A DNA stretch of 64,000 nt from Acidobacteriota bacterium. GTDB taxonomy: Bacteria; Acidobacteriota; Vicinamibacteria; Vicinamibacterales; 2-12-FULL-66-21. Under the pieces are notes generated by a model that did not search any database, was not told the DNA's origin, and saw only the letters and a program-made list of their open reading frames with translations. A program made the position numbers and the translations under genes. The number at the start of each line of letters is the position of its first letter. Within the stretch, counting starts at the first letter, position 1. Below, in pieces: positions 8,738-12,281 of the stretch. The DNA lies in the NCBI GenBank assembly GCA_003223835.1, contig QHWR01000040.1:15134-79133 (forward strand). Direction: 5' to 3'.

Positions 8738-10687
8738 ATGATGCTCCTGATCCCGCTGCTGCCGTTCGTCGGCTTCCTGATCAACGCGTTCGTCGGACGC
8801 CGGCTGCCGAAGACCGTCTCCGGCGGCCTCGCGTGCCTGGCGATGGTCGCGTCGTTCGCCGTGTCGGTATTCCTCGTCTGGCAGCTCGCGAGCACGCCGG
8901 GCGGCACGTCGATCGAGGCGACGTATTACACGTGGATCGCGTCGAACGACCTGCAGATTCCGCTGCAGTTCCGGCTCGATCACCTGGCGGCGCTGATGAT
9001 CCTCGTCGTCACGGGCATCGGCTCGCTGATCCATGTCTATTCGACCGCCTACATGGACGAGGAATCGTCGAGCGAGTACGCGCGCTACTTCTCGTATCTG
9101 AATCTCTTCGCGTCGTTCATGCTCGTGCTCGTCCTCGGCTCGACGTTTCCGGTTCTCTTCGTCGGGTGGGAAGGGGTCGGGCTCTGCTCGTATCTGCTGA
9201 TCGGGTTCTGGTTCCGGAAGAAGTCGGCGGCCGACGCCGGCAAGAAAGCGTTCGTCGTCAACCGGATCGGCGACTTCGGGTTCATTCTCGGCATGCTGCT
9301 CGTGTTCACGACGTTCGGCACGCTGGATTTCCAGCAGGTGGCCGCCGCCGCGGCCGCGCGCGCGCCCGAGACGTCGATGGGCGTCATGACCATCGCGACG
9401 CTGCTGCTCTTCGTCGGCGCGACCGGCAAGTCCGCGCAGATTCCGCTGCATGTCTGGCTGCCGGACGCGATGGAAGGGCCGACGCCGGTCTCCGCGTTGA
9501 TCCACGCCGCGACGATGGTGACGGCCGGGGTGTACATGATCGGGCGGAACGCCGTGCTGTTTTCGCGCGCGCCCGAGACGCTGGCGGTCGTCGCGGCGAT
9601 CGGCACCGCGACGGCGCTCATGGCGGGCACGATCGGGCTCGTGCAGAACGACATCAAGCGCGTGCTCGCGTATTCGACGGTCTCGCAGCTCGGTTACATG
9701 TTCCTCGCGATGGGCGTCGGCGCGTACGCCGCGGGCATCTTCCATCTGTACACGCACGCGTTCTTCAAGGCGCTGCTGTTCCTCGGCTCCGGCGCGGTCA
9801 TCCACGCGCTCGCGGGCGAGCAGGATCTGCGGAACATGGGCGGGCTGAAGCGCGCGCTGCCGATCACGTACTGGACGTTTCTGACAGGCGCGATCGCGAT
9901 TGCGGGGGTGCCTCCGCTCGCGGGGTTTTTCAGCAAGGATGAAATCCTGCTGAACGCGTACGCCCACGGGCACCTCGTCCTGTGGGGCATCGCGAGCGTG
10001 ACGGCGTTTCTGACCGCGACCTACATGTTCCGTCTGGTGTTCCTCACATTCCACGGGGAGCGTCGCCCATCGACCGCGCACACCGGACACGACGGACATG
10101 GCGATCACGTGCACGACGCGCCGCCCGCAATGGCGTTCGTGCTCATCGTCCTGGCGATTGGATCGGTCGTCGCCGGCTTCGTCGGCGTGCCCGCGGCGCT
10201 CGGCGGCGGCAATCGCATCGAGCGGTTCCTGCATCCGTCCTTCGTCGCGGAGCCGGTCACGGGGCAGCCGCAGTGGGAGGCCGCACACGCCGCCGCGCCG
10301 GCTGACACGCACGCGGAAGAACCGCCTGCCGGCGAGCAAACGGAGCTGACCCTGATGGCGCTCTCGACGGGCCTGGCGCTCGCGGGCATCGGCCTCGCCG
10401 CCTACTTCTTCCTCCAGCGCCGCGACACGGCGGCGGCGCTCGCGCGCCGCTTCTCGGGCGCCTACACGCTGCTCGCGAACAAGTACTACGTGGACGAAGC
10501 GTACGACGCGGTGATCGTGCAGCCGATCCGGCAGCTCTCGACGTTTGCGCTGTGGAAAGGCGCGGATGCCGGGATCATCGACGGCGCCGTGAACGGCGTT
10601 GGCTCGATCGTCCGCGGCGCGAGCGGCACGCTGCGACGCGTGCAAACCGGGTCGGTCCGCACCTACGCGGCGTCGCTGTTCGTCGGC
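8738..10687 (+). CDS. nuoL: NADH-quinone oxidoreductase subunit L, without its own stop codon (runs in frame into nuoM)
   Basis: First ~650 codons of track ORF 8738..12211. Contains …GWEGVGLCSYLLIGFW…, …[30 protein letters not shown]… and …VQTGSVRTYAASLFVG. The usual last ~12 residues and the stop are missing. Confidence 0.85.
9463..9602 (+). repeat. 140-bp exact direct repeat, copy 1 (native position in nuoL)
   Basis: ggacgcgatggaagggccgacgcc…gtcgtcgcggcgatcg is identical base for base to 11089..11228. Here it is in frame and encodes the conserved NuoL segment [46 protein letters not shown]. Confidence 0.95.
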
Positions 10688-12281
10688 GTTCCGCTCGCGG
10701 GCGCCGTGCTGGCGCTCCTCGCCGGCGGGCGCGGCGATCGGCCGGACCGCGACCCCCTCGTGCGCGCGATCGCGGTCGTGACGTCGCTCCTCGCCTTCGC
10801 GGCGACGCTGTATCTGTGGTGGCGCTTCGACCCGGCGAGCGCGGACTTCCAGTTCATCGAGCATCGCCCGTGGATTCCGGCGTTCGGGATCGCCTACCAC
10901 CTCGGCATCGACGGCATCAGCCTGTTCCTCATCGTCCTGACCGGCTTCCTCACGCCGCTCGCGCTGCTGTCGTCGTGGCAGTCGGTGCACAAGAACTTCA
11001 AGCTGTTCTCGTTCTTCCTGCTGGCGCTCGAGACGGCGATGCTCGGCGTGTTCGCGTCGCTGGACCTCTTCCTCTTTTATGTGTTCTGGGACGCGATGGA
11101 AGGGCCGACGCCGGTCTCCGCGTTGATCCACGCCGCGACGATGGTGACGGCCGGGGTGTACATGATCGGGCGGAACGCCGTGCTGTTTTCGCGCGCGCCC
11201 GAGACGCTGGCGGTCGTCGCGGCGATCGCTCGACCTCTACGGCCTGCGGCTGCAGCACCCGCTCGACACGTGGTTCTTCCTGGCGTTCACGGTGGCCTTC
11301 GCCATCAAAGTGCCGCTGTTCCCGTTCCACACCTGGCTGCCCGACGCGCACGTCGAGGCGCCGACGGCGGGTTCGGTGATCCTGGCCGGCGTGCTGCTGA
11401 AGATGGGCACGTACGGTCTGCTCCGCTTCTCGTTCCCGCTCTTCCCCGACGCCGCCCACTACTTCGCGCCCGCGCTCGCGGTGCTCGCCGTCGTCGGCAT
11501 CATCTACGGCGCGCTGGTCGCGATGGTGCAGCCGGACTTGAAGAAGCTGGTCGCGTATTCGAGCGTGAGCCACCTGGGGTTCGTGGTGCTCGGGCTCTGC
11601 GCGCTCAACGTCAACGGCGTGCAGGGGGCCGTCTACCAGATGCTCAACCACGGCGTCAGCACGGGCGGATTGTTCATGCTCGTCGGCATGCTGTCGGACC
11701 GGCGCCACACGCGGCTGATCTCCGAGTTCGGCGGCCTCAAGGCGGTGATGCCGCGGCTCGTCGCGGCGTTCCTGCTCGTGACGCTCTCGTCGATCGCGCT
11801 GCCCGGCCTGAACGGATTCGTCGGCGAGTTCCTGATCCTGCTCGGGGCGTTCCGCTGGCATCCGAAGTTTGCCGCGTTTGCCGCGACGGGCGTGATTCTC
11901 TCGGCGGTCTACATGCTCTGGATGTTCCAGCGCGTGAACTACGGCGAGATGACGAACGAGAAGAACGCGCGGCTGCCGGACCTCTCGCCGCGCGAGTGGG
12001 CGCTCATGATTCCGACCGTCGCGATCGCCGTGCTCATGGGCGTCGCGCCGGGCATCTTCCTGCGGCCCATGGAGCCGTCGGTCGCGAAGTCGCTCGACCG
12101 GATCATGAGCGGCCAGCCGACCAGCGTGCGCGCGATCGAAACGCCGCCCGTCAGCCGCCCTCCGTCATCCGTCATCGTTTCTCGGCGCTCGGCGGCTTCC
12201 GCCTTCGCTGAAGCTTCGGCGGACCGCCGTAGCCTTGGCGGAGGCTCGTCGCGCCTCGCTCGGGCCGCAGGCGCGCCATGA
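10688..12281 (+). pseudogene. nuoM: NADH-quinone oxidoreductase subunit M, disrupted (N-terminus fused to nuoL, an internal segment replaced by a nuoL copy, frameshift)
   Basis: - N-terminal part: VPLAGAVLALLAGG…FQFIEHRPWIPAFGIAYHLGIDGISLFLIVLTGFLTPLALLSSW…FYVFWD, in the nuoL frame.
- Middle: 140 nt of nuoL sequence (11089..11228).
- C-terminal part: the NuoM sequence resumes in another frame at 11229 (LDLYGLRLQHPLDTWFFLAFTVAFAIKVPLFPFHTWLPDAHVEAPTAGSVILAGVLLKMGTYG…, track ORF 11292..12281).
- Missing: the expected ~60 aa (…[11 protein letters not shown]…). Confidence 0.85.
11089..11228 (+). repeat. 140-bp exact direct repeat, copy 2 (ectopic, inside nuoM)
   Basis: Identical to 9463..9602. 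The left junction shares the 10-nt microhomology ggacgcgatg with the expected nuoM sequence (FWDAM…). The right junction is at …gcgatcg|ctcgacctc. Confidence 0.95.

Follow-up and report, generated by a model that had tools for sequence, protein, structure and literature searches.

An ectopic nuoL segment inside nuoM of a Vicinamibacterales metagenome-assembled genome very probably reflects a local assembly error

The window analyzed here is a 64,000-nucleotide (nt) stretch of an Acidobacteriota metagenome-assembled genome (MAG; GCA_003223835.1, contig QHWR01000040.1, positions 15,134 to 79,133 of the forward strand), in which the complex I genes nuoL and nuoM are both broken and nuoM carries an exact copy of part of nuoL. 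The proteins of the window, which is part of a 79,565-bp contig, were identified by exact look-up as PYR79105 to PYR79142 (locus tag DMF86), and the nearest species representatives are Vicinamibacteria/Vicinamibacterales MAGs with ∼80% NuoN identity. On the + strand, nuoL occupies 8738..10688 and lacks its last 11 codons and stop (Pfam PF00662 and PF00361; tblastn match to residues 1–649 of 660). The 5' part of nuoM follows at 10689..11098 (+), in frame 2, and ends ...LFLFYVFWDAM (Pfam PF01059; tblastn). Its 3' part, in frame 0, extends from LDLYGLRLQHPLDTWFFLAF... to the stop at 11229..12281 (+; Pfam PF00361 from profile position 90; tblastn). Because a 50-nt stretch with the stop of nuoL and the start of nuoM is missing at 10688|10689, nuoL reads in frame into nuoM, resulting in a single open reading frame (ORF) of 1157 amino acids (8738-12211). 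In the NCBI protein numbering, NuoK (PYR79115) is followed by NuoN (PYR79116) with no accession between them; nuoL and nuoM were thus evidently handled as pseudogenes by NCBI.

As reported in the initial annotation, which was made from the sequence alone, positions 9463-9602 of the window recur at 11089-11228. The two segments are identical at 140 of 140 positions, lie in direct orientation and are 1626 nt apart, as seen in the sequence itself, with a repeat finder and in an exhaustive exact-repeat scan. The second-longest exact repeat within the 64-kb window measures only 34 nt, which excludes chance as the source of a 140-nt repeat. The source copy (9463..9602, +) lies in frame within nuoL, where it encodes NuoL residues ∼242–288 (repeat scans and NuoL/NuoM alignment), and this donor segment is identical across five other contigs (L001, L090, L092, L095 and L097). 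The ectopic copy (11089..11228, +; repeat scans and alignment to intact contigs) is composite: positions 11089-11098 (GGACGCGATG) are common to genuine nuoM, positions 11099-11227 (129 nt) are foreign, and G11228 is again common to both.

Near-identical contigs for comparison were retrieved by one metagenome pattern scan and by exact look-ups with the NuoN, NuoH and NuoK proteins of the window. Those from third parties originated from BioSamples SAMN08902836, SAMN08902851, SAMN08902877, SAMN08902886 and SAMN08902887, from Logan runs SRR7042370 and SRR7042383, and from JGI. L090 and L101 belong to a sister MAG (DMF85, GCA_003222655.1), which is of the same species and was deposited by the same submitter. 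Besides the window, five assemblies span the site of the ectopic copy: L001 (ENA scaffold, SAMN08902887), L003 and L006 (both JGI), L090 (sister MAG) and L092 (ENA, SAMN08902836). Around the site L001, L003, L006 and L090 are 97.8–99.8% identical to the window, and L092 is 98.5% identical up to 11098, after which it continues as a more divergent haplotype (∼88% at the protein level). This switch in L092 (∼3640-3874), from a window-like to an ∼80%-identical haplotype, falls ∼40 nt past the left junction in nuoM, and the stretch is thus a conserved node at which the assembly graphs of co-occurring relatives come together.

All five contigs carry an intact nuoM, so that the ectopic copy is found in one of the six assemblies spanning the site. 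Outside the exchanged stretch the intact contigs agree with the window, on the left as far as 11098 and on the right from 11228 onward (on the right L092 is excepted, as it diverges downstream). Where they have 167 nt of conserved nuoM (L001 2621-2787, L003 430-596, L006 590-756, L090 12722-12888, and also in L092), the window has 129 nt of nuoL (11099-11227), a net loss of 38 nt. The earlier statement that the copy replaces part of nuoM and shifts its frame therefore holds, and the exchange can be given exactly: the net loss of 38 nt moves nuoM from frame 2 (...FYVFWDAM, 11084-11098) to frame 0 (LDLYGLRLQHPLDTWFFLAF..., from 11229).

The two junctions of the copy differ in kind. The microhomology of 10 nt described initially for the left junction was borne out, since GGACGCGATG is also present in genuine nuoM (11089-11098). 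The right junction had been placed at gcgatcg; this correctly marks the place, but there is no homology there, only the single base G11228 being shared, and the sharing of 1 nt is indistinguishable from chance. The donor lies in cis, 1626 nt upstream on the same strand. In a BLASTP alignment of intact NuoL with intact NuoM, NuoL residues 231–288 aligned with NuoM residues 228–286, whereas the copy occupies NuoM residues ∼146–200. It thus lies ∼93 residues upstream of the paralogous NuoM position, in flanks with 29% protein identity between NuoL and NuoM. Gene conversion between the paralogues was rejected because the copy stands at a non-homologous position, in agreement with the initial annotation, which had already discounted simple gene conversion.

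The junction was also sought in public sequence collections. Within a collection of 5.8 billion protein sequences, a 204-amino-acid query across the site retrieved only ordinary NuoM or NuoM genes frameshifted elsewhere (the matches inspected all read FWD(A/F)(M/V)LIPMYFLIG), the matches of high coverage being just such frameshifted nuoM genes from other assemblies, and the best match to a 48-amino-acid query centred on the left junction scored 49 bits, the matches being ordinary NuoL fragments. Exact look-up returned no record of the 1157-amino-acid fused ORF, of the 329-amino-acid NuoM 3' ORF or of NuoJ with a TTG start, and the left-flank 33-mer was not found in the genome contig collection. 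The negatives for the junction queries and for the fused and 3' ORFs are weak, as the protein collection lists cluster representatives of called genes, but they agree with a structure private to the window.

Approximately 42 kb of the window could be compared with other assemblies, and within this sequence five structural differences of at least 30 nt were private to the window (lesions A, B, C, E and F), a density of about one short private lesion per 8 kb of comparable sequence. Apart from the ectopic copy (lesion B), these differences, including the 50-nt loss at the nuoL/nuoM boundary, go beyond the initial annotation. Lesion A (10688..10689, +) is that loss of 50 nt (CCGTCATGATTCTCGGGTGGTATCTGTGGCGCTGACGATCGTCGTTTTTC), which are present in L006, L090, L092 and L094 and include the stop codon of nuoL together with the GTG start codon of nuoM that overlaps it; there is no microhomology at the break. 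A gap of 66 Ns in L001 begins at the identical base, L007 ends 23 nt beyond it, and the sequence of L003 begins 19 nt ahead of the right edge. Lesion B (11099-11227, +) is the exchange in nuoM as defined by alignment to the intact contigs (+129/−167 nt, net −38). Lesion C (16404..16408, +) is an in-frame loss of 48 nt from an immunoglobulin-like (Ig-like) surface-protein gene at 13807-16494; L003 retains the lost sequence, and L001 shows a gap of 12 Ns at this place. By Pfam, the product of this gene is a Glucodextran_B / Ig-like surface protein.

The remaining two lesions fall in genes for ribosomal proteins. Lesion E (56814..56815, +) removes 33 nt (11 codons) from the 5' end of rplY, which encodes ribosomal protein L25, and lesion F (59106..59107, +) removes 31 nt and shifts the frame of rplI, which encodes ribosomal protein L9. 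Both losses are present as sequence in L101-L106, which are six contigs from four pipelines, the sister MAG included. At lesion F the left contig of L100 stops at the window's break base and is followed by Ns; L100 has, in addition to its N gap at the rplI site, a 7-nt loss of its own at the rplY site. With S6 at PYR79140 and DnaB at PYR79142, the accession numbering leaves place for S18 only, so L9 is without an NCBI protein. Overall, the sequence lost in lesions A, C, E and F is present in one to six other contigs each, lesions A, C and F fall at N gaps of L001 and L100, both from one sample, and at lesions A and F the left contig end is the very base at which the window breaks.

The sister MAG is intact at lesions A, B, E and F and has private losses of its own. 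Two lie in the nuo genes, with 41 nt missing from nuoD (L090 5683|5684) and 50 nt from nuoH (L090 9176-9179), and two more, of ∼71 and ∼83 nt, are located at L101 2308 and 3271 (window 50208-50275 and 51242-51316), along with a run of 68 Ns at L101 7486-7553. Neither the nuoD loss nor the nuoH loss is seen in the window, L007 or L008, and L102 backs the window at 51242-51316; the loss at 50208-50275 was assessed by comparison of the window with the sister MAG only, there being no third contig. Many third-party contigs start or have a gap at the nuoH site (window 7545-7604). We also considered that the blunt losses could have come from Ns being stripped during preparation of the window; this was rejected, given that L090 has similar blunt losses without Ns and L101 keeps its N run.

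A genuine polymorphism close to the copy served as a control. At the 3' end of nuoM (12189..12190, +), the window, L003 and L006 share the deletion allele of a 29-nt indel, and L001 and L090 share the insertion allele. Because both alleles are found in several independent assemblies, genuine polymorphisms evidently recur across pipelines, unlike lesions A–F. The indel sequence (CGCGGGGCGCAACCCCGCTCGCTCTCGCC) contains a GC-rich hairpin, alters the last ∼35 NuoM residues and lies 960 nt downstream of the nuoL copy.

Based on these sequence comparisons, the ectopic nuoL copy is very probably a local assembly or curation error of the MAG and not a feature of the organism's DNA. The structure is private, similar errors affect both its scaffold and the sister MAG, and genuine variants are shared. 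The strongest argument comes from the presence of several further private lesions on this contig. A broken nuoL and nuoM, combined with a frameshifted rplI and 11 codons lost from L25, would not be credible in a living organism. Lesion B can be grouped with A, C, E and F because its net change of −38 nt falls within their range (31–50 nt) and its right junction is blunt. The initial annotation had offered three explanations, a template switch during replication, a product of illegitimate recombination, or a mis-join in the assembly graph at k=141; an artefact is what the evidence favours, but the k-mer mechanism proposed for it is contradicted by junctions of 10 nt and 1 nt, as detailed below.

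Taken at face value, the structure would record an event in vivo, either a double template switch similar to fork stalling and template switching or microhomology-mediated break-induced replication (FoSTeS/MMBIR) or an illegitimate recombination, by which 129 nt of nuoL came in and 167 nt were lost, leaving nuoM pseudogenised in the strain that dominates one sample. The 10-nt microhomology at the left junction favors such an event, as does a donor that lies in cis with unchanged orientation, at a distance of 1.6 kb, approximately the size of an Okazaki fragment. So does the unlikelihood of a chimera formed in vitro by polymerase chain reaction, a candidate that was set aside because the two sites, 1.6 kb apart, are separated by more than a library fragment and because a partner from the same genome would be very improbable in soil DNA. 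Nevertheless, the structure is private to one of six assemblies, the right junction shares 1 nt only, and the four further private lesions on the contig, ribosomal protein genes included, cannot all be real. Moreover, NuoN, NuoH and NuoK of the window have 100% protein identity to those on contigs with an intact operon, and hence show no sign of decay. We judge it very improbable that the whole structure arose in the cell.

How an assembly error of this kind may have come about depends on the pipeline. The MAG is probably from a project that used IDBA-UD (k 30–200), scaffolding and automated Velvet patching. For the presumed project, Diamond et al. 2019 (PMC6784897) described reads of 250 nt trimmed to 200 nt, with ∼500 nt between pair mates, and the assembly of 59 of 60 samples with IDBA-UD to a maximum k of 200 (-mink 30 -maxk 200 -step 10; 12 samples with mink 40 and step 20). 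The one other sample was assembled with MEGAHIT (k 41–201, step 20) and then passed to the IDBA-UD scaffolder, and scaffolding errors were corrected by a previously described procedure (PMC6784897). In the procedure of Anantharaman et al. 2016 (PMC5079060), an error is a region of zero coverage under stringent mapping; Velvet is used to re-assemble the reads that map ≤1 kb from it, and Ns take the place of any region that resists correction.

These settings bear on the k=141 mechanism, in which a de Bruijn graph was mis-joined and the 140-nt identity corresponds to k−1. The arithmetic fits (140 = 141−1), and the MEGAHIT series of the one presumed-project sample (1/60) includes 141. The assembler k-mer settings, which the initial annotation had recommended checking, were read for the presumed project: its IDBA-UD series runs from 30 to 200 in steps of 10, and in the 59 of 60 samples with a maxk of 200, 140 would be at most an intermediate value of k and not the k−1 of a last round at k=141. 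A mis-join would also need k−1 bases shared between nuoM and nuoL, which share 10 nt on the left and 1 nt on the right; the identity of 140 nt results from the copy and is not its cause. We accord this mechanism almost no credence. A related idea, that the 140-mer was a single graph vertex bounded by single-nucleotide polymorphisms (SNPs) between strains, was likewise rejected: L001 and L007 show no polymorphism at 9462 or 9603, and the only SNP is at 9496.

Under the favored explanation, an assembly or curation error, the site would be the join of two contigs, as at lesions A, C, E and F. The right junction would be a blind concatenation in which ∼40 nt were lost, and the left piece may first have been extended or patched with 129 nt from nuoL reads 1.6 kb upstream, the first 10 nt of the recruited piece happening to match the end of the left flank. 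A donor at 1.6 kb could plausibly be reached by a repair step that combines a 1-kb flank with the mates (presumed to be pooled) of ∼1-kb fragments.

Several points weigh against this explanation. The assignment of the MAG to the project, BioProject PRJNA449266, is our presumption, drawn from the accession series and from near-identical contigs of the project's samples; we found no paper or supplement naming GCA_003222655, QHWS, DMF86 or the SAMN numbers. An exact left overlap of 10 nt is expected by chance at ∼1e-6 per join, and 10 nt is shorter than any k-mer of IDBA-UD, MEGAHIT or, normally, Velvet. The overlap is thus too short for a k-mer graph and too long for chance, so that either a step that seeks overlaps or genuine reads of the junction must have been involved. 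Polymerase template switching typically leaves microhomology of this sort. Furthermore, contig ends or gaps do not recur at the nuoM site in other assemblies as they do at lesions A, C and F and at the nuoH site; the haplotype switch of L092 lies near it, ∼40 nt downstream.

The same left junction admits a mixed origin, in which it is the novel joint of a real tandem duplication of 1,626 bp (9473-11098) bounded by the 10-nt direct repeat GGACGCGATG. The duplication would be present in some or all cells, and intact copies of nuoL and nuoM would remain. The assembler would have collapsed the copies and kept a 139-nt tail into nuoL (k−1 for IDBA-UD at k=140) plus one chance G, and this dead end would have been blindly joined to the downstream nuoM contig, producing a false right junction and an apparent replacement. 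The geometry fits, as the end of the segment (11098) joins its own start (9473) on the same strand with 10 nt of microhomology, and the right junction is essentially without homology, as at the blind joins A, D and H. The lengths exchanged are nearly equal (129 nt in, 167 nt out), as if alternative branches had been laid in series by their coordinates, and a MEGAHIT contig (L091) ends in a similar back-jump via 10 nt of microhomology (9165 to 8774). The length of 139+1 nt also agrees with k−1 for k=140, a value in the IDBA-UD series of 30–200 in steps of 10, but this argument is weak because any multiple of 10 (±1) fits the series. In addition, the junction occurs in no other assembly, and a dead-end tip shorter than 2k should be clipped if the true path is present. 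A duplication of this type is improbable in our estimation, if somewhat less so than an event that was real throughout.

Jumps of a comparable kind were observed in nuoL of two third-party MEGAHIT contigs. At its end (9480-9607), L091 has 58 nt from a divergent haplotype of nuoL and then jumps back from ∼9165 to 8774 via 10 nt of microhomology (GTTCGTCGGC), a back-jump of the same kind as that of the nuoM copy. L094 has a 207-nt in-frame deletion in nuoL (∼1765-1781; window 9357-9373 / 9564-9580) between 17-nt direct repeats (CGCGCGCGCCCGAGACG), which takes out most of the 140-nt donor segment. As 17 nt is less than the usual minimum k of MEGAHIT, the junction of this deletion should occur in the reads.

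Taken together, a real template switch and a tandem-duplication junction retain a small share of the probability. It is similarly unlikely, though worth stating for its consequences, that at least the left junction is real, in the form of a natural, microhomology-mediated nuoM/nuoL rearrangement in a soil Vicinamibacterales-like population. If so, it would be either a 1.6-kb tandem duplication with a chimeric nuoM'-'nuoL or a double template switch that pseudogenised nuoM, and the 10–17-nt microhomology jumps in L091 and L094 would mark the GC-rich operon as a hotspot of template switching.

The surrounding sequence has further features of interest. The nuo cluster extends over 1634-13705 in the order nuoA-B-C, a SIS-domain gene (3114-3686) and nuoD-E-F-H-J-K-L-M-N. 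The end of nuoF (6817) is followed by the start of nuoH at 6821, and the end of nuoH (7843) by the start of nuoJ at 7917; from these borders, nuoG and nuoI are missing from the cluster. The SIS gene between nuoC and nuoD is unrelated, and the same gene order is found in L090 and L091. Farther downstream, a giant ORF of 4691 amino acids (20803-34878) contains 31 Big_5 Ig-like domains along with LVIVD, TSP3 and Big_7 domains, and has internal repeats ∼2910 nt apart. An array of degenerate 7/15-nt units (GATTGCCGATTACG) at 62176-62387 directly borders on a second array at 62394-62651 that is roughly the reverse complement of the first (GCCAATCGTCAATAC); the two arrays form an imperfect palindrome of short repeats of ∼500 nt (62153-62651) that is variable in L104 and L100.

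If the copy is an assembly error, it has little biological importance, as a complex I gene would be broken on paper only. Its practical value is as a warning about a public MAG contig and the sister MAG, in which nuoL, nuoM, rplI and rplY on the one hand, and nuoD and nuoH on the other, are fused or frameshifted; none of the pseudogene calls, fusion proteins or 'novel' repeats in these records should be accepted without question. Should the junction prove true, it would be a natural, if modest, case of microhomology-mediated template switching in a soil bacterium not yet cultivated.

Among known systems, ectopic conversion among NuoL, NuoM and NuoN resembles the present case in that the copied gene and the receiving gene are both Mrp-antiporter-like paralogues (PF00361). 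Unlike a conversion tract, the copy is ∼93 residues off the paralogous position, lacks extended flank homology and changes both length and frame. FoSTeS/MMBIR, and RecA-independent illegitimate recombination and tandem duplication in bacteria, share with it a deletion combined with an insertion templated nearby in cis, in direct orientation and with 10 nt of microhomology at one of the junctions. It departs from them in being found in no other assembly, in a second junction of 1 nt and in a contig that carries artefactual lesions of similar size, and it is known from assemblies alone. Described assembly errors are mostly unsupported sequence, wrong repeat numbers and duplicated ends at N gaps (PMC7111523; PMC5079060), and an exact 140-nt copy brought in from 1.6 kb away via 10 nt of microhomology corresponds to no documented subtype. 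Even so, the copy behaves as do the scaffold errors reported for IDBA-UD assemblies of metagenomes (Chen et al. 2020, PMC7111523; Anantharaman et al. 2016, PMC5079060): the consensus disagrees with all other assemblies of the same population, conserved genes are broken, other short errors co-occur on the scaffold, and some of the window's lesions lie at the scaffold gaps of other assemblers.

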